From Patescibacteria group bacterium (GTDB taxonomy: Bacteria > Patescibacteriota > Minisyncoccia > Phycocordibacterales > PALSA-1337), in NCBI GenBank assembly GCA_038065415.1, contig JBBTRA010000002.1, positions 13,646 to 77,645 of the forward strand: a stretch of DNA of 64,000 nt, read 5' to 3'. Made by a program: the position numbers and the translations under genes. The notes beneath the pieces were generated by a model that was not told the DNA's origin, ran no database searches, and saw only the letters and a list, made by a program, of their open reading frames with translations. Shown in pieces: positions 53,933 through 64,000 of the stretch (the first letter of the stretch is position 1; each line of letters starts with the position of its first letter).

Positions 53933-54616
53933 CTATTTTTGCGGGAGAGAATACATTGGTATCCCATAAGCGTACCGGATACCACCACAATGAAGTTTAT
54001 TTTCTGTAATTAAGTTTTTTGTGTTACCTATGGTGACTGTAGCCCCTGTAGTATTTTGGGGCAGTATACTAAGTGCTTTTATGTTACTACGGTTAATAGA
54101 AAGGACGCGGTTTACTTTTGTTTGCAGTCCGTGCTCGTTTAGAGAAGGAGTACTAAATCCTAAGAGAAATATGTCTCTATTTTCATATATCTTGCAGACA
54201 CGAGCCGTTTCTATATGTCTACTTTTTTCTGGGGCTTCTGCAAAGGATATGCCAAGCACCCTAAGTTTTTCAAGCTCTTCTTCATCAGCAATAATACTCG
54301 CAAGGTATGGCTTTGCTCCACCCAGCCATTGAGGTATAAAAGGAAAAAAGAAATTACTAAAAATATATATCCAAATCAACAAACAGGAAAATTTGAGTAA
54401 AAAGTTTGTCTTGGAAAAACGAATTCTAACCCATTTCCAGATGCCAATAGTTAGTATAGGAGGAAATAATATTAAAGTACCGGCGGATAAAAACCGTGTT
54501 TGTAACAGATCGTATTCAAATATCCCAAAGTGACCAAGATATAAATTCCATGCAAAAAATCCGCTTGCATATGCTGTAGCCAGTAACATAACAGTTTTTT
54601 TCTCAAGTAAATCCAT
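53933..54616 (-). CDS. Hypothetical membrane protein (227 aa) in locally AT-rich DNA
   Basis: Several hydrophobic helices; codon usage visibly AT-skewed relative to neighbours. Confidence 0.35.
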   Translation of the reverse strand: MDLLEKKTVMLLATAYASGFFAWNLYLGHFGIFEYDLLQTRFLSAGTLILFPPILTIGIWKWVRIRFSKTNFLLKFSCLLIWIYIFSNFFFPFIPQWLGGAKPYLASIIADEEELEKLRVLGISFAEAPEKSRHIETARVCKIYENRDIFLLGFSTPSLNEHGLQTKVNRVLSINRSNIKALSILPQNTTGATVTIGNTKNLITENKLHCGGIRYAYGIPMYSLPQK

Positions 54617-56234: not shown

Positions 56235-56495
56235 TTAGTCCTGATCGAGGTGCTTCACCTGAAGCTTCCTGACAGCTTTCTTAGGTGTTCGTGTTGCTCG
56301 GGTAGGAGATTCATTTTTGCCGATCACCTCGATAAGTTTCTCGATGTCCTCTCTCTTATATACTCGGTAATTATTGATGGGGTGTCTGAGGGCCTTGAGC
56401 TTGCCCTTGTTGTCCCAATTACGGAGGGTAAGAGGGGTGACCCCGAGCATTCTAGAGGCTTGCTTTATAGTGACTATTTTTGATTCTTGGCTCAT
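56235..56495 (-). CDS. MerR/excisionase-type HTH DNA-binding protein (86 aa)
   Basis: …IKQASRMLGVTPLTLRNWDNKGKLKALRHPINNYRVYKREDIEKL…. Confidence 0.55.
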   Translation of the reverse strand: MSQESKIVTIKQASRMLGVTPLTLRNWDNKGKLKALRHPINNYRVYKREDIEKLIEVIGKNESPTRATRTPKKAVRKLQVKHLDQD

Positions 56496-56582
56496 GCGTG
56501 TGTGATATGGCTTATAAGTACCCGCTTAGTATAACACTTATAAACATTGATAAACCATATATAAACTGTGGACAATTATATC

Positions 56583-56599
56583 AATCTATAAAATAGATT
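56583..56599. promoter_or_regulatory. Palindromic operator candidate AATCTAT-AAA-ATAGATT in AT-rich divergent intergenic region
   Basis: Perfect 7-bp inverted repeat between divergent HTH gene (56495) and 56810 gene. Confidence 0.3.
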
Positions 56600-56809
56600 A
56601 GTAATGTTTTATTAAAAACGTCGAATTTGATCGGTGCACTAAAAAATATTTTTCAGCTACTTCGAGTGGCTATTATGAGAGTAAAAAATATCGACCAAAA
56701 TCTAAAACGACCCTTTAAAATGCGATATGAGACTTTTATTTTTTGATACATGATATTAGTGCTATCCACAGAGCTTTTTCATATCGATGATTGCTATACT
56801 TATCACTGA

Positions 56810-57943
56810 ATGAAAGATTCAATTTTAATCGATGCTCGTGAGTTCATCTCGGTTGTCCGAGCCTCCGAGATAACCAAGTACAGCAACGACTATATCGGGC
56901 AACTCTGCCGCGAGGGTAAGATTGCTGCACGCATGGTTGGCCGCACCTGGTTCATCGATCGCGAATCTCTCTCCGTCTACAAAAATTCCGTTGATGCTGC
57001 ATTCGCCGGACAGGGCAAGCAGAAGGAGGCCATCCTGCCAAAGGGGTCGGTCGAGTCGAACATGATCGATGGGCGCGAATACGTCGAAGTCGCCAAGGCG
57101 GCTGAGATGACCAAATACTCCAAGGACTATATCGGGCAACTCTGCCGCGAGGGTAAGATTGCTGCGCGCATGGTTGGCCGCACCTGGCTCATAGACCGTG
57201 AATCTCTTGCCACCTACAAGAGCTCAGTCGACTCCTTCTTTGCTGGTCACGGTAAGCAAAAAGAGCCGGTGCTTCCGCGTGTTGTTGTTGAGTCGAAGAT
57301 GGTCGCTAAGTCGACGGTCATGTTTGTCGAAAAGCAAAAAGAGTCGCTTGCAAGGAACGCATCAGTGACGTACATGCCGGACACCGGCGCGACGTTACCA
57401 GTGTTGCAAAAGAAATATGATGCATCTGTCGCCGTGACACATGTTCCAAATAGTGATCAGCGCATTGTGTATCGTGAATCTAGGAAGTCATCGCCAATGC
57501 GTACTGCATTTACGGTTGTTGCGATTGCGCTCGTTCTCGTCTCTGGCTCAGTAGCTTTTCTTCGCATCTCTAATCGCTCAGGTCAGGGTCATGTTGCAGT
57601 CGAGATGATGGCCCCGAACACAGCCTCTGTTGGCAGTATCATCTATGCGATTGAAGATTTCTTCAGAAGGGTCTTCAACATGGAGTCTCGATCATTAGCA
57701 ACGAATGATGTGGAGAAGCCTCCACCGAACCCTGGAGGGCTCGCCATCGTACCGTCGTCAAATTCGAAAGCACAAGATGAACTTATAAAACAAAAGATAC
57801 GAGGATCGTTCTCGGATGAAGTCCGAGTCGCTCCAGACGAAAGTGGCACCGCGGGGGTGATCACGCCAGTCTTCAAGAAAGCAACGGGAGATAACTTCGT
57901 ATATGTATTGGTCCCCGTCGCAGAGCAAGCAAATAATCAGTGA
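56810..57943 (+). CDS. Membrane-tethered protein with two tandem excisionase-type HTH domains, one TM helix and ~120-aa extracytoplasmic C-terminus
   Basis: Repeat unit …EITKYSNDYIGQLCREGKIAARMVGRTWFIDRESL…AGQGKQKE… occurs twice (63-bp near-identical DNA repeat 56888-56950 / 57125-57187); TM …TAFTVVAIALVLVSGSVAFL…. Confidence 0.5.
   Translation: MKDSILIDAREFISVVRASEITKYSNDYIGQLCREGKIAARMVGRTWFIDRESLSVYKNSVDAAFAGQGKQKEAILPKGSVESNMIDGREYVEVAKAAEMTKYSKDYIGQLCREGKIAARMVGRTWLIDRESLATYKSSVDSFFAGHGKQKEPVLPRVVVESKMVAKSTVMFVEKQKESLARNASVTYMPDTGATLPVLQKKYDASVAVTHVPNSDQRIVYRESRKSSPMRTAFTVVAIALVLVSGSVAFLRISNRSGQGHVAVEMMAPNTASVGSIIYAIEDFFRRVFNMESRSLATNDVEKPPPNPGGLAIVPSSNSKAQDELIKQKIRGSFSDEVRVAPDESGTAGVITPVFKKATGDNFVYVLVPVAEQANNQ
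56888..56950 (+). repeat. 63-bp intragenic direct repeat copy 1 (second copy 57125..57187, 1 mismatch)
   Basis: gactatatcgggcaactctgccgcgagggtaagattgctgc[a/g]cgcatggttggccgcacctgg; 237 bp period = 79 codons = one HTH unit. Confidence 0.8.
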
Positions 57944-58059
57944 TCGTACTCAAGTGTCTCGGCTGTTTCGAAGAAGAACCAAGACACATGAGCAGGATTA
58001 CTCATGAGATCGAAGACAGAATTATCAAGGATCGAATTTATATCATAAGCATTATTACC

Positions 58060-58731
58060 ATGAAAGAAATCATTCAGACGCTCAGAATAAGCATGACGAC
58101 GCTACTCATAGTGGCAGTCGCATTCTTCACTCTTGAGCCCGCAGTTAGCAACGCAATCGAAGATCAGTTCACAGTTACGCAAGTGGTCACCGCTGAGATA
58201 TCCTTCCTCACGCCGAGCTCGGATATCGTCATGAGTCCACAGCTCGCGGGTATCACAGGAGGAACTTCCAATGGATCGACCTATGTTCGTGTCCTTACCA
58301 ACAATGCGCTTGGCTATAGCATGACGCTCACATCAAGCTCCTCCTTGGGTATGATCGGCAACACTCAGGGCGGAAATATTCCCGCTTACACGCCAGCAAC
58401 TGGTATCGTTCCAGACTTCAGCTTCTCAGTACCAGTGAACAGGGCTGAGTTTGGGTATACGGTAGAAGCATCGACGACACCAGATCTTGCTCAGGCATTC
58501 TTGGATAACGGTACGACAACCTGCGATACAGGGTCGGCTGATACAGTCGATGCATGCTGGGTTAATGCAAGTACGTCTGCACGTACGATCATCAATCGTA
58601 CCACTGAGACAGCTGCTTCAGGTGCTACGACGACTATCAAATTCCGCGTCACTATCAACTCCAATCCATCTCCAGCAGTTCCTCAGGATACATATGTAGC
58701 AACCACCACTCTTACTGCCACCACGAACTAA
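58060..58731 (+). CDS. Secreted Ser/Thr-rich protein with conserved Cys pair (paralog of 59756..60544)
   Basis: Start at internal Met (ATG 58060): signal peptide MKEIIQTLRISMTTLLIVAVAFFTLEPAVSNA; …TCDTGSADTVDACW…. Confidence 0.45.
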   Translation: MKEIIQTLRISMTTLLIVAVAFFTLEPAVSNAIEDQFTVTQVVTAEISFLTPSSDIVMSPQLAGITGGTSNGSTYVRVLTNNALGYSMTLTSSSSLGMIGNTQGGNIPAYTPATGIVPDFSFSVPVNRAEFGYTVEASTTPDLAQAFLDNGTTTCDTGSADTVDACWVNASTSARTIINRTTETAASGATTTIKFRVTINSNPSPAVPQDTYVATTTLTATTN

Positions 58732-58761
58732 CGAAGCGTCTTTACACTTCACATCACTACC

Positions 58762-59748
58762 ATGACATTACAAACACTCTTCAGAATGATATCCGGTTGT
58801 GCGATTGCGCTGGCCTTGCAGGCCGGCTCGCCAGTTCTTTCCGTTGCGCATGCAGCTCCGTACAGCATCGAGACTCTCCCCGATGCAACTGTCTACAATG
58901 ACTTCGTCGTGGGTCCCGGCAAATACCAGGTAGATGCAAAACCAGGCGAGACCAAGACGGTCAATATGATCGTGACGAACCGTCTCGGCAAAGAGAAGGC
59001 GTTTCAGATCCAGCTCGAGGATTTCGTAGGTTCACGCGATTTGCAGAAGACGGTTGTACTTCTCGACAACGAGCGTGGCCCGTATTCGCTCAAGGATTAT
59101 CTCAGAATTGCCTCGAGTACTTTCGTACTCAACAATGCTGAGAGAGTGACTATACCGGTGACCATCCAGATCCCAACAGATGCTCAGCCCGGTGGTCTTT
59201 ATGGCAGCGTGGTCATCAGTACAGTGACTTCGCCTGCGGAGCAGAGGCCTGCAGGATCAGCAGGTATCAGCCCGATTGTTACTCGCATCGGTTCACTCTT
59301 CTTCATTCGTGTAGCTGGAGAGGTCAAGCAAGATTTGATCCTCAAAGAATTCTCCCTGAAAGGAGATTCGCGCATCGTAGGATCGAGTCCGGTAGATTTC
59401 CAATTGCTCTATGAGAACAACGGCTCCATTCACGAGAATCCATCCGGATCCATCAGGGTCAGGAATATGTTTGGCTCCGAGGTTGCTACTTTGGAAGTCG
59501 AACCGTGGTTCGTCATGCCAGACTCACTTCGTCTCAGGGAGGTTTCTTGGAACTCTCCATTTCTCTTCGGTAGGTATGTCGCAACCGCAGAGATACACAA
59601 GGGGTATGACAATTTGACAGATACGGCTTCGGTCGCATTCTGGGTCATACCTTGGAAGATCATCCTGGCTGTATTCATCGTCATCGTGATCATTGTCGCA
59701 GGGATCAGATTCATCGCATCGAAGATCAACATATCACTCAAGAAGTAA
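58762..59748 (+). CDS. Cell-surface protein with signal peptide and C-terminal TM anchor (DUF916/DUF3324-like architecture)
   Basis: …SVAHAAPYSIETLPDATVYNDFVVGPGKYQVDAKPGETKTVNMIVTN… β-rich; C-terminal …IPWKIILAVFIVIVIIVAGIRFIASK…. Confidence 0.45.
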   Translation: MTLQTLFRMISGCAIALALQAGSPVLSVAHAAPYSIETLPDATVYNDFVVGPGKYQVDAKPGETKTVNMIVTNRLGKEKAFQIQLEDFVGSRDLQKTVVLLDNERGPYSLKDYLRIASSTFVLNNAERVTIPVTIQIPTDAQPGGLYGSVVISTVTSPAEQRPAGSAGISPIVTRIGSLFFIRVAGEVKQDLILKEFSLKGDSRIVGSSPVDFQLLYENNGSIHENPSGSIRVRNMFGSEVATLEVEPWFVMPDSLRLREVSWNSPFLFGRYVATAEIHKGYDNLTDTASVAFWVIPWKIILAVFIVIVIIVAGIRFIASKINISLKK

Positions 59749-59755
59749 ATCAACC

Positions 59756-60544
59756 ATGCACTTCGCTAGCAAACAACCATCGACCATATCGAAAGCCGCC
59801 TTCCCGGTATTTTTCGCGTTGGTTGTCCTTGCTGCAGTGTACTCGTCTCCGTACGCGGCAGGTCAGACTATGACAAGTGGTTCGTACAAGATACAGAGCG
59901 ACAGCGTCAACTTCGGTGGTGCTCGTTCATCATCAGCAACCTACACGATCGAGGATACTGCTGGCGAGGTTGCTACGGGCATATCGTCGAGCACCAACTA
60001 TCAGGTCAAGGCTGGATATCAGCAAATGCAGGAGACATATATCGCACTAGCTCCAGCTGCGGATGTGGCCATGAGTCCAGCGATCGGCGGTATCACTGGT
60101 GGGATATCGAATGGTTCCACTGGCTTCACCGTGACTACAGACAATCCTGCAGGATACACCGTGACTATCAAGGCGAGCTCCACTCCAGCTATGCAGTCAC
60201 CGTTGGATACAGTTGCAGATCATAGCGCAGGTGCAGCGAATCCAAGTTTCGGATTCACTGTACCGGTGACTGCTTCTGCATTTGCATTCACGCCAGAGGG
60301 AACTGATATAGCGAGCACATTCAAGGATGATGGTGCATCTTGTAATACTGGTTCGGGCGACACCTCCTTCGCATGCTGGGCTGGCCTCTCTACAGCTCCT
60401 CAGACGATCGTAAGCAGGACATCGGCAAATCATCCATCGGGAACTCTTACGACAATCAACTTCCAGGTTCGCTCTGGATCAGAGCATGTGTTGGTGGCGG
60501 GCATCTATGTAGCCACTACGACTATAACCGCATTGCCGTTGTAA
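59756..60544 (+). CDS. Secreted Ser/Thr-rich protein with conserved Cys pair (paralog of 58060..58731)
   Basis: Start MHFASKQPSTISKAAFPVFFALVVLAAVYSSPYAAG (ATG 59756); …SCNTGSGDTSFACW…; shared MSPxxGGITGGxSNGST motif. Confidence 0.45.
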   Translation: MHFASKQPSTISKAAFPVFFALVVLAAVYSSPYAAGQTMTSGSYKIQSDSVNFGGARSSSATYTIEDTAGEVATGISSSTNYQVKAGYQQMQETYIALAPAADVAMSPAIGGITGGISNGSTGFTVTTDNPAGYTVTIKASSTPAMQSPLDTVADHSAGAANPSFGFTVPVTASAFAFTPEGTDIASTFKDDGASCNTGSGDTSFACWAGLSTAPQTIVSRTSANHPSGTLTTINFQVRSGSEHVLVAGIYVATTTITALPL

Positions 60545-60549
60545 AACTC

Positions 60550-62127
60550 ATGAAGAAGTACACAGCACAACTCATGCATATCGGACTGGCGCTCTTGGTT
60601 GGAGCATCTTTTGCTTTTGCGGCAGAGAATACATTCCAGGTGCAGCTTGCGGTCATACCAGAGGGGAATACGGCTCCGTCGGTTCCAGCTAACCTTGTGG
60701 CGACTGCAGTTTCATCTTCGCAGATCGATCTTTCATGGGACACATCTACCGATGATGTCGCTGTAGATGGATACAGAATATTCAGGGACGGTATCGTTGT
60801 GGCTTCTACGACTGCTCTCACATACTCGGATATAGGTCTGACTGCATCGACCGCGTATACCTATGAGGTGGAGGCGTTCGACACAGCTCCGCTCTATTCG
60901 GGTCTATCCGCACCTGCGACAGCGACGACGCTTGCTGTTGGAGTTACTCCGCCAGGTCCTGGTGGACAATCAGGAGATGGTCAGCTCACACTGATCTTGA
61001 GCAACATCAATGCCACACCTGCACAACGCTCTGCTGTTGTGAGCTTCTCGACCAATCAGGCGACACAGGCGAAGGTTTACTGGGGTACAACAGCTGAATA
61101 CGAGCTCGGTTCGATCTCGGGCCTTTTCTATGACGTCAACCATGCAGTGACCATAGATAGCCTTGTTCCCGGTACACAGTACTTCTTCAGGGTTGAAGTT
61201 GTGAATTCTATTGGAGCGATGAAGTCAGCCGAAGGTTCATTTGAGACTTTGTCAGTAGTCCAGCAGGAAGTTCTGACTAACGTGACTGGCTTCAAAGCAA
61301 CTCCACGCACATCAGATATCGCTCTTTCATGGAAGAATCCTTCCCAGAGCATTTTCGATAGCGTTCGTATCGTCCGTTCAGATAAATTCTTCCCGAGGGA
61401 TATCTATGACGGACAAGTCGTATACGAGGGGCGCGCTCAGAATCATGTGGATGCGGATGTTCGCATTGGAACGACCTACTACTACACGATATTTGCACGC
61501 GACACAGCTGGCAACTACTCGTCGGGAGCGCTTGCCAAAGCTCGCATCGCTCCGGCAGGCGAGATTGTCATATCGCCAGATTCTACGGATCCGTTCATCG
61601 GCATACCGGTGCTCGAAAATGTTGATCCGGGCATAGCACGCCTAACCCTGCTTGATTTCGATTTCTTCCAGGAAGGGAAGAAGCTCGTCAATATCGGCAA
61701 TCAAATCGGGATCGATGGCTCGAAGGATCTCACTATACGCCTTGAGTATGGCAAAGTTCCAGAGATATTGAAGACTATCGCAATCACTCTGGCTGATCCT
61801 GAGGATCCGACGCAAGTGTTTCCATTCTTGCTCCGCGTGAATCAGGACAAGACTGCGTACGAGGCTACCATCGCTCCACTCGGTAAGCGTGGCAAGTACA
61901 AAATGAACATCGTCATCCTCGACTACAAGAATCAAGGATTGAGGAGGTTGGACGGCAATCTGAGAGCGTTCGTCTTTGGTTCGATTCCGGGCCTTGTAGG
62001 AGCCAGGGGAGGTGTGTCATACCGCGTGGTTGATCTTTTCTTCTTGCTTGTGGCATTGATCATGATCCTGCTCGCTATTGCATATCGCAGGCACAAGAAA
62101 ACAACTCAAGAAACATATGGAGTATAA
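60550..62127 (+). CDS. Cell-surface protein with fibronectin type III-like domains and C-terminal TM anchor
   Basis: Start MKKYTAQLMHIGLALLVGASFAFA (signal); …LVATAVSSSQIDLSWDTSTDDVAVDGYRIFRDGIVVASTTALTYSDIGLTASTAYTYEVEAFD… (FN3); C-terminal …LFFLLVALIMILLAIAYRRHKK. Confidence 0.55.
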   Translation: MKKYTAQLMHIGLALLVGASFAFAAENTFQVQLAVIPEGNTAPSVPANLVATAVSSSQIDLSWDTSTDDVAVDGYRIFRDGIVVASTTALTYSDIGLTASTAYTYEVEAFDTAPLYSGLSAPATATTLAVGVTPPGPGGQSGDGQLTLILSNINATPAQRSAVVSFSTNQATQAKVYWGTTAEYELGSISGLFYDVNHAVTIDSLVPGTQYFFRVEVVNSIGAMKSAEGSFETLSVVQQEVLTNVTGFKATPRTSDIALSWKNPSQSIFDSVRIVRSDKFFPRDIYDGQVVYEGRAQNHVDADVRIGTTYYYTIFARDTAGNYSSGALAKARIAPAGEIVISPDSTDPFIGIPVLENVDPGIARLTLLDFDFFQEGKKLVNIGNQIGIDGSKDLTIRLEYGKVPEILKTIAITLADPEDPTQVFPFLLRVNQDKTAYEATIAPLGKRGKYKMNIVILDYKNQGLRRLDGNLRAFVFGSIPGLVGARGGVSYRVVDLFFLLVALIMILLAIAYRRHKKTTQETYGV

Positions 62128-64000
62128 GAACATATACAAGAGAATAGTCTACATGGTTGCCGTCTTCGCGGTGGCTTTGACGGTTGTCTCTGCATATGTG
62201 TTTGTGGCACACGCTGCGATCAATCGTGAGATCAACTATCAGGGTAAGTTGACCAATGCATCCAATGTCGCTGTCGCCGATGGTCTCTACACGATGTCCT
62301 TCAGCCTCTACACAGTCCCTACGGCTGGATCGGCGATCTGGACTGAGCTCCTGAATGGTGCAAATGAGGTTCAGGTCACCAATGGTCTCTTTAGTGTCAT
62401 GCTCGGTTCGACGACACCATTCACTGGCGTGGACTTCAATCAGGAGTTGTACCTCGGTGTCACGATCGAAGGTGACAGCGAGATGACTCCGCGCAAGATC
62501 CTCGGCACAGTACCAGCTGCATTTGTTGCAGATACGCTCGACAATCTTTCGAGCGAACAGTTTCTTCGTTCCGATGCACAGAATTCCACTTCGACAGCAT
62601 CTACCTTCTTGACCATTATCCAGAACGGAGCAGGTAAGATCGCAGAATTCTTTGGCGCTGCATCCAATAGTGTGTTCTCTCTGCTTTCGAATGGAAATGT
62701 GGGCATCGGCACCACCACTCCATATGCAAAGCTTTCGGTTGCAGGTCAGGTAGTAGCTGAGAATTTTGTGGGAACATCGACGGCTACATCAACCTTTGGT
62801 GGAAATCTTGCTCTACGAGGAGGATTTGAGGTTCGGTATGAGGATGCTACAGAAACTCTTTTCATAGACAAACCATCGTCTGCATTTGAACACATACGAG
62901 TAAGAGATCTCACTGCCACCGACGCACTCTCTTCTTTGACCCAGGTATATACACCGCGCGTTGATGCTACTACTGATCTTTTGCTTAAGGCAAATACTGA
63001 TTTGGGTGAGGATACTACCGTTACAATTGATTCGACTTTCGGATATTTTACGGGGAGAGTAGGCATCGGCACCACCACTCCATATGCAAAGCTTTCGGTT
63101 GCAGGTCAGGTAGTCGGAGAGTACTTCACTGCAACTTCAACCACTGCTTCTAGATTCCCATACGCTTCAACTACAGCTCTCACAGTCTCAGGTACCAATG
63201 GTCTCCAGCTTGCTTCAGGTCTCAACGGATCTCTTCAGGCGATCAACGGTCTTGTGTCAGCTACCTCAACTCTCTCTACTGCATTTGGTGGTACGGGTAT
63301 CTCTACGAAGCCTGCGTATGGGGAGCTTCTCTTGGGTCAAGCAAATGGAACATATGCGCTGACATCCACAACATCTTTGAACATTGCTGCAAACAGTCTT
63401 GTTGGGACGCTTGGTGTTTCGCAGGGCGGCACGGGGTCTTCGTCATTCGGACAGGGTTGGATATATTCGAATGGTGGAACCAATGCGCTCAATTCCTCCT
63501 CATCTCCAACGGTGAACTATGTTATTGCTACGAGCACCACGAAGAAGAGTATATTTGTAGGAGGTATAGATTCACGCAATACCTCGACCTTCTATAGTCC
63601 GATTGATGCTGCTACGCTCACGGTGAATAGCTACTCGAGTGTTTCGTTGACATCGTCTGATGGAATCATCAACATTGGTGATGAGAGTGTCAATCAGGAG
63701 ATGCGCTTTGTTACAACCTCGGCGGGTACAATAGGTGCTGCAATTAGCACTACAGATTCATATTTTGCACAATATGGCGGCAATGTCAGGGTAGGACCAG
63801 TATCTCCACTCACTGATTATGGGTCACGCCTCTTTGTGACCAGTGAGAATCTCTCAGACGCATGGATCAATCTCAAGCAAACCTCCGGTGATAGTCAGCT
63901 TGTCATCGGAGCTATGACCAATCCACGCGATGTGAATGGGTTGGCGGCTCCATATTTGCAGTCATATAATGATGGGTCTGCGTACGCGCTTATTTTGAAT
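62118..64000 (+). CDS. Large fibre-like surface protein, N-terminal part (open to window end; ≥627 aa), with repeated GIGTTTPYAKLSVAGQVV motif
   Basis: Manual translation from ATG 62118 (MEYKNIYKRIVYMVAVFAVALTVVSAYVFVAHA…) shows no stop to 64000; not in ORF track (no stop in window). Motif resembles β-helical repeats of tail-fibre/S74-chaperone-type fibre proteins. Confidence 0.5.
62699..62755 (+). repeat. 57-bp direct repeat copy 1 (encodes NVGIGTTTPYAKLSVAGQVV)
   Basis: Near-identical (1 mismatch) to 63059..63115, 360 bp (120 codons) apart, inside the fibre gene. Confidence 0.8.
63059..63115 (+). repeat. 57-bp direct repeat copy 2
   Basis: See 62699..62755. Confidence 0.8.

Follow-up and report, generated by a model that had tools for sequence, protein, structure and literature searches.

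The window analysed here, a stretch of 64,000 nucleotides from a Patescibacteria group bacterium, holds on its forward strand, at 56810..57943, a gene for a protein of 377 residues that combines two winged helix-turn-helix (HTH) units, a disordered linker, a single transmembrane (TM) helix and an outside C-terminal domain; we designate the protein, and its family, HTH-TM. Our main finding is that this family, previously uncharacterised in that no description was found in the literature searched, stands at the head of a conserved cluster of surface-filament genes and diverges from a second, small HTH gene. We tentatively propose, at a little under an even chance, that HTH-TM is a bitopic transmembrane transcription regulator coupled to the surface-filament operon. 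This interpretation is preferred because the fold matches the excisionase Xis and TraN, because the recognition helix is invariant and has been repeatedly homogenised, and because the linkage to the operon is fixed. We infer DNA binding by the HTH units, the pairing of motifs with proteins, the direction of regulation and the contacts of the outside domain. A check of the open reading frames of the window placed both HTH genes at the coordinates given in this report.

Two stretches of the HTH-TM protein match Pfam HTH_17 (PF12728, 55.1 bits against a cut-off of 27), and TIGR01764 'excise' scores 50.7 bits against 28.8. In an AlphaFold2 model based on a 28-sequence alignment, residues 4-68 and 84-145 form two winged HTH units with a predicted local distance difference test (pLDDT) score above 90, followed by the disordered linker and a helix at residues 231-253. 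The best fold match is the mycobacteriophage protein Pukovnik Xis (4j2n; target-normalised TM-score 0.72-0.74, root mean square deviation 1.2 Å), joined by TraN of Enterococcus (Foldseek probability 0.93-0.96). Residues Y24, D27, Y28, G30, Q31, L32, R34, K37 and W47 of the HTH are invariant across the alignment. The TM helix comprises residues 232-253 (57503..57568, forward strand; Kyte-Doolittle 2.47). Architectures were counted in the best 120 homologues from a word-indexed search with 993 matches: the hydrophobic segment is single in 107 of them, and lysine plus arginine average 2.8 on its N-terminal side versus 1.0 on its C-terminal side, the former exceeding the latter in 95 of 120. This positive-inside bias therefore gives an N-in, C-out topology, with a tail of 124-125 residues (254-377) on the outside. 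A preliminary description of this DNA, made from the letters alone, had proposed two excisionase-type HTH units, a single TM helix and an extracytoplasmic tail of about 120 residues, all of which are borne out.

The outside C-terminal domain occupies residues 302-377 (57713..57940, forward strand; SFSDEV...GTAGVITPVF...YVLVPV). It is hyper-conserved, with 13 invariant columns in 99 sequences, and an AlphaFold2 model from a deeper alignment predicts a helix plus hairpin at pLDDT 64-85. No match to this domain was found in Pfam, even at E<=10, or in a sequence search of the PDB. The linker carries a short motif, YMPDTGATLPVLQKK, at residues 188-202 (57371..57415, forward strand; family consensus Y..D.RPLLP.L.K from the alignment), which is kept in members with 500-residue linkers (P0180 and P0189) and may be a docking site for a partner. 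Within the family this cytoplasmic linker varies in length between about 40 and more than 500 residues of low complexity, its ends being conserved; a variable linker of this kind would suit a tether by which the HTH gains access to DNA.

The only annotation of the exact protein is 'helix-turn-helix domain-containing protein', from a Patescibacteria metagenome-assembled genome. A full HMMER scan with its last 76 residues returned 782 clusters at 50% identity, the domain lying always at the extreme C-terminus, and a scan of GTDB species genomes yielded at least 565 confirmed matches. Genome titles among the matches listed are Taylorbacteria, Kaiserbacteria, Nomurabacteria, Paceibacteria or Minisyncoccia, and the family appears, among those matches, to be confined to Paceibacteria. 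Members share a common plan: a start of the form MKD..., one or two HTH units, a linker with the short motif, one TM helix, an amphipathic stretch and a C-terminal domain of about 65 residues (SFSDEV.V.PD.SGTAGVITPVF...F.YVLVPV).

The two HTH units of the window protein are repeat copies of 212 nt each (56828..57039 and 57065..57276, forward strand), in frame at an offset of 237 nt and 75% identical as DNA. Inside them lies a core, at 56888..56950 in copy 1 and 57125..57187 in copy 2 (forward strand), that encodes the recognition helix and wing (DYIGQLCREGKIAARMVGRTW) and is identical at 62 of 63 positions, far above chance expectation. The preliminary description had correctly reported this near-identity over 63 bp, with one mismatch, and had taken it for a recent internal duplication. 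The second step does not hold: on either side of the core, which is 98% identical, the units share only 63% and 65% of their nucleotides and, among codons for identical amino acids, synonymous differences affect 1 of 19 in the core versus 22 of 32 in the flanks (Fisher p=7e-6). Such a mosaic points to a gene-conversion tract within an older duplication rather than to a recent duplication. Identical tracts between units also occur in lineages L010, L025, L073, L051 and L079, and in four lineages (L001, L010, L025 and L073) the conversion tract lies over the recognition helix and wing. The boundaries of these tracts differ, which speaks for repeated conversion and against the retention of a fixed nucleotide-level element; a functional element of that kind behind the 63-nt identity is disfavoured on this ground. 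As to an assembly artefact, raised in the preliminary description, the window and contigs from two assembly records are identical (0 differences over 17 kb), and assembly collapse is unlikely because the 63-nt tracts stand 237 nt apart.

The copy-number comparison called for in the preliminary description gave one HTH unit in 92 of the 120 homologues and two in 27. The nearest relatives of the window protein (P0002, P0003 and P0011) have one unit, which both window units resemble, and in other two-unit clades the units group by position. Together, the likeness of the window units to single-unit relatives and the position-paired units elsewhere show that the HTH duplication arose independently several times.

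Synteny was assessed from gene calls around seven homologues and from tblastn of the window proteins against 92 related loci, fetched with their flanks and including some redundant contigs. The order is nearly fixed: AI-2E transporter, obg, gatB, mini-MerR on the reverse strand, spacer, HTH-TM on the forward strand and surface genes, the latter being a pilin-like, a chaperone-like and a second pilin-like gene (or a reduced form of this set), a fibronectin type III (FnIII) gene with a TM segment and a gene for a giant protein of 2,000-5,000 residues. About 60 of the 92 loci, redundant contigs among them, keep the full order from gatB to the giant protein, which extends to related genomes the linkage to surface genes and to a divergent small HTH gene that had been noted in the window. 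Across hundreds of species the core-genome neighbours are secA, the AI-2E transporter, obg and gatB, and in several species the stop codon of HTH-TM is separated from the next gene by 1-7 nt only.

In the window itself, the surface-filament genes are co-oriented downstream of HTH-TM (58063..62127, forward strand). A pilin-like paralogue pair with signal peptides (58063-58731 and 59756-60544; 42% identical to each other) brackets an Ig-type, WxLIP-like chaperone with a C-terminal TM helix (58762-59748), which matches EfmWxLIP1 in the PDB at E=3e-4 and scores 26.6 bits with WxLIP_PGBD (PF06030), against a cut-off of 27.3. Next come an FnIII protein that, like PamR, has a TM helix at its C-terminus (60550-62127) and, from 62117 to the window end and beyond, a giant protein of about 3,400 residues; Peptidase_S74 was detected in the giant protein of the window's own contig and of L006. 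The NCBIfam PamT model gave 40.6 bits on the downstream genes, below its cut-off of 240. Judged by sequence, the cluster would be a distant relative at best of the Pam pilus operon of the candidate phyla radiation (CPR) and of the WxL clusters of Firmicutes. It shares with them pilin-like paralogues that have signal peptides, a chaperone-like protein of Ig type that ends in a TM segment, an FnIII-TM protein and a giant tail-fibre-like neighbour. In its passages on these operons, the Pam paper (bioRxiv 10.64898/2026.03.03.709456) presents pilins, TM-anchored PapD-like chaperones, the FnIII-TM protein PamR and a tail-fibre-like neighbour, places Pam pilins mainly in Saccharimonadia and Microgenomatia, not in Paceibacteria, and, where it treats pilin assembly and gene neighbourhood, describes no HTH-TM gene. 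The WxL clusters of Firmicutes resemble the downstream genes distantly (PMC10599100). In the literature searched we found no description of Pam-like or WxL-like clusters in Paceibacteria, and no paper on WxL-type clusters in Parcubacteria.

The divergent gene, mini-MerR (56235..56495, reverse strand), encodes 86 residues, in which a MerR-type winged HTH is followed by a basic tail and, at the end, the conserved motif KKLxVxHL. It is a MerR-like gene, as had been proposed: Pfam MerR (PF00376) scores 43.8 bits against a cut-off of 28.2, and PF13411 scores 40.2 against 21.6. The protein has neither the coiled-coil dimerisation helix nor an effector domain; after the HTH there is only the basic tail and the short conserved end. 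From the related loci, 49 distinct homologues of about 82 residues were collected, always divergent from the HTH-TM gene, and loci titled Kaiserbacteria were without mini-MerR.

The spacer between the two genes (56496..56809) is 314 nt long and AT-rich, with about 30% GC. Its length is 243-1006 nt (median 372) in 53 of 54 loci, the one shorter case being a locus with masked bases; k-mers were analysed in 46-47 distinct spacers. A putative -10 element of the HTH-TM promoter, TATACT, lies at 56795..56800 (forward strand), 9 nt before the ATG, with no -35 match, and a simple sigma-70 scan found no -35/-10 pair at this promoter. The promoter alignment places a TATAAT-like -10 at 4-16 nt from the HTH-TM ATG in 38 loci; a -10 so close to the start points to an mRNA that is probably leaderless or nearly so. 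No Shine-Dalgarno sequence was found at the HTH-TM start.

Upstream of this -10 is the most widespread element of the spacer, a 9-mer that resembles a DnaA box. In 80 distinct upstream regions the information content is confined to the nine positions TT[A/G]TCCACA, and 74 of the 80 have a proximal site (ATCCACA, at most one mismatch). The proximal copy is always on the forward strand, 41-63 nt before the HTH-TM ATG, and in 36 of 38 loci its distance to the downstream -10 falls into one of two classes, 22-24 nt or 30-34 nt, with modes of 23 and 31-32 and a difference of 6-12 nt between the classes. In the window it is CTATCCACA at 56762..56770 (forward strand), 24 nt 5' of the -10 and 40-48 nt 5' of the ATG. 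As a rule, another copy is found close to mini-MerR; in the window this is TTGTCCACA at 56567..56575 (reverse strand). The box is present with or without the mini-MerR gene; in lineages without mini-MerR, the HTH-TM gene and the box are kept, and pilin and chaperone genes were not detectable downstream within the fetched flanks. The forms TTATCCACA and TTGTCCACA occur exactly 37 times in 20.4 kb of spacers versus 0.23 expected, and the box 54 times in 24.5 kb of spacers versus 5 in 559 kb of flanks. It is thus about 250 times denser in spacers, by which a general promoter motif is rejected. In the whole window the box is not enriched (17 matches versus 13 expected at one mismatch). Loci with one HTH mostly have two boxes and those with two HTH units often the proximal box only, which may be a phylogenetic artefact.

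At the other end of the spacer, sequence and an alignment of MerR-proximal regions place a putative -10 of the mini-MerR promoter, TATACT, at 56528..56533 (reverse strand). Adjoining the distal box is a candidate mini-MerR operator, the M2 array (56541..56566, reverse strand), which consists of three GTTTA repeats, read as TAAAC on the forward strand at 56541, 56551 and 56562, with a spacing of 10-11 bp. The M2 pattern, [AT]T[ACT]A[AT][GT]GTTTA, forms 10-11-bp direct repeats plus inverted copies around the mini-MerR promoter; 44 sites were counted in 32 of 46 MerR-containing spacers versus 2.5 expected, and 0 sites in 21 MerR-less loci. In the 64-kb window the strict pattern occurs only once, at 56541-56566. 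A third element, M3 (TTAAAATGCGATAT; 56715..56728, forward strand), has its sole window copy in this spacer and is conserved, in either orientation, in the spacers of many lineages. The motif CCGAGA[TA] is absent from the window spacer; in many lineages it accompanies the HTH-TM gene, whether mini-MerR is present or not. It often forms an inverted repeat, TTCTCGG...CCGAGAA, and its place is immediately 5' of the -10 or beside the box (for example in L022, L039, L042, L055, L064 and L072). The palindromes listed in the preliminary description are present as strings, and their role as cis-elements is not upheld: AATCTAT-AAA-ATAGATT at 56583-56599 is near chance, about 0.3 palindromes with seven-base arms being expected per spacer in DNA of 30% GC (an estimate), and it is not kept in the nearest relative, L048. 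Nor did the region 57944-58059, put forward as a second target, contain a box, M2 or M3.

The mechanism that we propose for HTH-TM as a regulator would start with its two cytoplasmic excisionase-type winged HTH units acting as a covalently fused dimer. On the flexible linker, this pair would bind DNA at or near the promoter of its own operon, which has no -35 and carries TT[A/G]TCCACA one to two helical turns upstream of the -10; the box itself would be bound by DnaA or by the HTH-TM protein. The outside C-terminal domain would report on, or dock to, the envelope or filament machinery encoded downstream, so that expression of the operon for pilin-like and chaperone-like proteins and a giant adhesin would be coupled to the state of the cell surface. 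Mini-MerR may serve as a BldC-like co-regulator that binds the direct repeats of GTTTA at the promoter of its own gene. Indirect evidence for the predicted sequence-specific DNA binding and membrane-based control of transcription comes from the conserved promoter motifs and from the concerted evolution of the recognition helix. HTH-TM unites a DNA-binding domain and at least one TM segment in one protein, which is what defines the widespread class of transmembrane transcription regulators (TTRs); a survey of 50,302 TTRs counted 151 with HTH_17 (PMC10269533).

Several known systems help to place the family. HTH-TM is built like ToxR, CadC and TcpP, with a DNA-binding domain in the cytoplasm at the N-terminus, one TM helix and a C-terminal domain on the outside, and its gene adjoins the genes that it would control. 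Partners of ToxR-type proteins are often encoded immediately downstream (ToxS, TcpH, VtrC). The DNA-binding domain of those proteins is the OmpR-type Trans_reg_C, in contrast to the one or two tandem copies of HTH_17 in HTH-TM, in which Trans_reg_C gave no match at E<=1; moreover, the outside domain of HTH-TM has no detectable relative. By analogy, HTH-TM could possibly, though with something short of an even chance, work like ToxR, CadC and TcpP while standing outside the ToxR family. The idea of a membrane-tethered one-component regulator, advanced in the preliminary description, remains in its general logic the best-fitting one; membership of the ToxR/CadC family itself does not hold.

TraN of the Enterococcus plasmid pIP501 has two excisionase/MerR-like winged HTH units in one chain and binds double-stranded DNA. 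Its structures (PDB 4pm3 / 4p0z) are among the top structural matches to the two-unit model. Unlike HTH-TM, TraN is a small soluble cytoplasmic conjugation protein with neither TM helix nor outside domain, and sequence similarity between the two is not detectable. As for mini-MerR, BldC of Streptomyces binds direct repeats as head-to-tail multimers (PMC5859096). Mini-MerR resembles it in its MerR-type HTH without coiled-coil or effector domain and in the GTTTA repeats spaced by 10-11 bp over its own promoter; it differs in the basic tail and KKLxVxHL end and scores only 21.7 bits with NCBIfam BldC (NF033787), below the cut-off of 77, and binding of the repeats is a candidate function. ArnR and ArnR1 of Sulfolobus acidocaldarius are membrane-bound HTH regulators that control the expression of surface filaments, namely type IV pili and the archaellum (PMC6396743). 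They are archaeal proteins of another HTH family and membrane topology, without homology to HTH-TM.

Several observations weigh against the proposed regulator. The recognition helix is without the basic residues usual for HTH_17, and the pI of the units is only 7.8-8.9. The universal cis-element equals a DnaA box in sequence, length and boundaries, which makes DnaA the more obvious binder, and loci with more HTH units do not have more boxes. Sensor domains are usually far less conserved than the outside domain, whose modelled pLDDT of 64-85 would fit docking or assembly better than ligand sensing; an exterior-sensing role of this domain is conjecture. Finally, as RodZ illustrates, a protein can combine an HTH with a TM helix and yet have a role other than transcription. 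In RodZ, as in HTH-TM, a cytoplasmic HTH at the N-terminus is joined through a single TM helix to a conserved C-terminal domain on the outside, and RodZ too is widely conserved; it differs in genomic context and in having the Xre-type HTH_25 and DUF4115, neither of which was found in HTH-TM with Pfam.

We therefore weighed other explanations of the protein. HTH-TM could be a structural or assembly component of the filament or giant-adhesin apparatus and not a transcription factor, its outside domain docking pilin-like subunits, the WxLIP-like chaperone, the FnIII-TM protein or the cell wall, and its HTH serving as a protein-interaction or nucleoid-anchoring module in the manner of RodZ, whose HTH binds MreB. 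The position of the gene as first of the cluster, so tightly joined to the next gene in several species, agrees with this, as do the invariant columns of the outside domain and the conserved motif of the linker. Moreover, the strand-prone segments GVITPVF and FVYVLVPV are only moderately well predicted in isolation, which could mean that they fold on a partner, and relatives of the downstream system assemble by strand exchange (bioRxiv 10.64898/2026.03.03.709456). That the HTH was duplicated repeatedly, and that exactly its recognition helix and wing evolved in concert, is, however, easier explained by recognition of a DNA site, the fold matches include DNA-binding proteins, and in MerR-less lineages HTH-TM and the box are found without detectable pilin or chaperone genes in the fetched flanks; we consider a structural component unlikely. 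The least probable of all explanations, and one that we reject, is that both HTH genes encode excisionases or recombination directionality factors of a mobile element or prophage. Both proteins do match PHROG excisionase families and HTH_17 / TIGR01764, but synteny with the core genome is fixed across hundreds of species, there is no integrase in the flanks of the 92 loci, and a TM anchor with a conserved outside domain is foreign to excisionases.

A separate question, compatible with either account of the protein, concerns what binds the box. TTATCCACA and TTGTCCACA are canonical DnaA-box forms of E. coli, B. subtilis and actinobacteria. We give an even chance to a genuine DnaA box that is bound by DnaA and places the operon under DnaA control, HTH-TM having another DNA target. 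The restriction of the matrix to exactly nine positions, the canonical forms, the density in spacers and the two spacing classes to the -10 of a promoter without -35 all speak for it; DnaA, however, usually works on clusters of boxes, here limited to one or two per spacer, weaker boxes show no excess (82 observed versus 82.6 expected with two mismatches), and the invariant recognition helix of HTH-TM would equally predict an invariant site. That the HTH of the family itself reads the 9-mer, as a membrane-tethered box-binding factor that autoregulates via the box of its own promoter, strikes us as quite improbable. If true, HTH-TM would compete with or complement DnaA and couple the chromosome (origin/DnaA regulon) to the envelope and host-attachment filaments, thereby linking replication state to surface organelles in ultra-small episymbionts. 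A third possibility, that the spacer is an origin of replication (oriC) or a datA/DARS-like site for DnaA titration, is very improbable. The length and AT-richness of the spacer, its consensus DnaA boxes and the divergent genes on either side would suit such a site. An origin, however, requires negative skew on its left, and 37 of 37 loci show positive GC skew on that side of the spacer (mean +0.109) and values of about 0 on the other; in the window the skew is likewise positive across 1-58 kb. In addition, there are one or two boxes only, at a fixed distance from a -10 element, and the DnaA signature motif was not found in six-frame translations of the window and the 92 loci. We reject it on the skew, the lack of a weak-box excess and the missing signature motif. 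No paper on DnaA boxes in Patescibacteria was found, and the literature searched held no description of a DnaA box at a CPR surface-organelle operon.

Few uncultured bacteria are as abundant as Paceibacteria (Parcubacteria), and to our knowledge almost nothing is known of their gene regulation and of their presumed host-attachment surface structures. The locus would be one of few class-wide conserved regulatory modules in their reduced genomes, comprising a predicted membrane-tethered DNA-binding protein, mini-MerR, a promoter with conserved sites that include a consensus DnaA box, and the Pam/WxL-like filament and giant-adhesin operon that follows them. What is new is a predicted lineage-wide family of TTR type, a new outside domain and a distinctive promoter. 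The binding sites and protein fragments are testable in vitro without cultivation, and the series from one HTH to two fused HTH units with ongoing gene conversion provides material for studying winged-helix dimerisation on DNA.

Some observations concern the wider locus. Spacers of 700-1006 nt, unusually long for reduced genomes, occur in L021, L023, L036, L038, L039, L009 and L088; in these, only the ends and M3 are conserved. No Rfam family reached gathering score in six loci with long spacers, and the 700-1000-nt spacers have no small open reading frame in common. Between obg and gatB, the window has a gene for a multi-pass membrane protein of 227 residues (53933-54616, reverse strand) without family match, which among the 92 loci was seen only in contigs of its own genome and looks like a lineage-specific insertion. 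The orientation of gatB varies by lineage while mini-MerR stays divergent from HTH-TM, and inversion breakpoints therefore respect the regulatory pair. Finally, in nearly all species (37 loci) the GC skew stays positive as far as the HTH-TM gene and falls to near zero within the genes for surface proteins; this drop, at 58000-64000 of the window, is probably an effect of the amino-acid composition of the Thr/Ser/Ala-rich proteins, not of replication.

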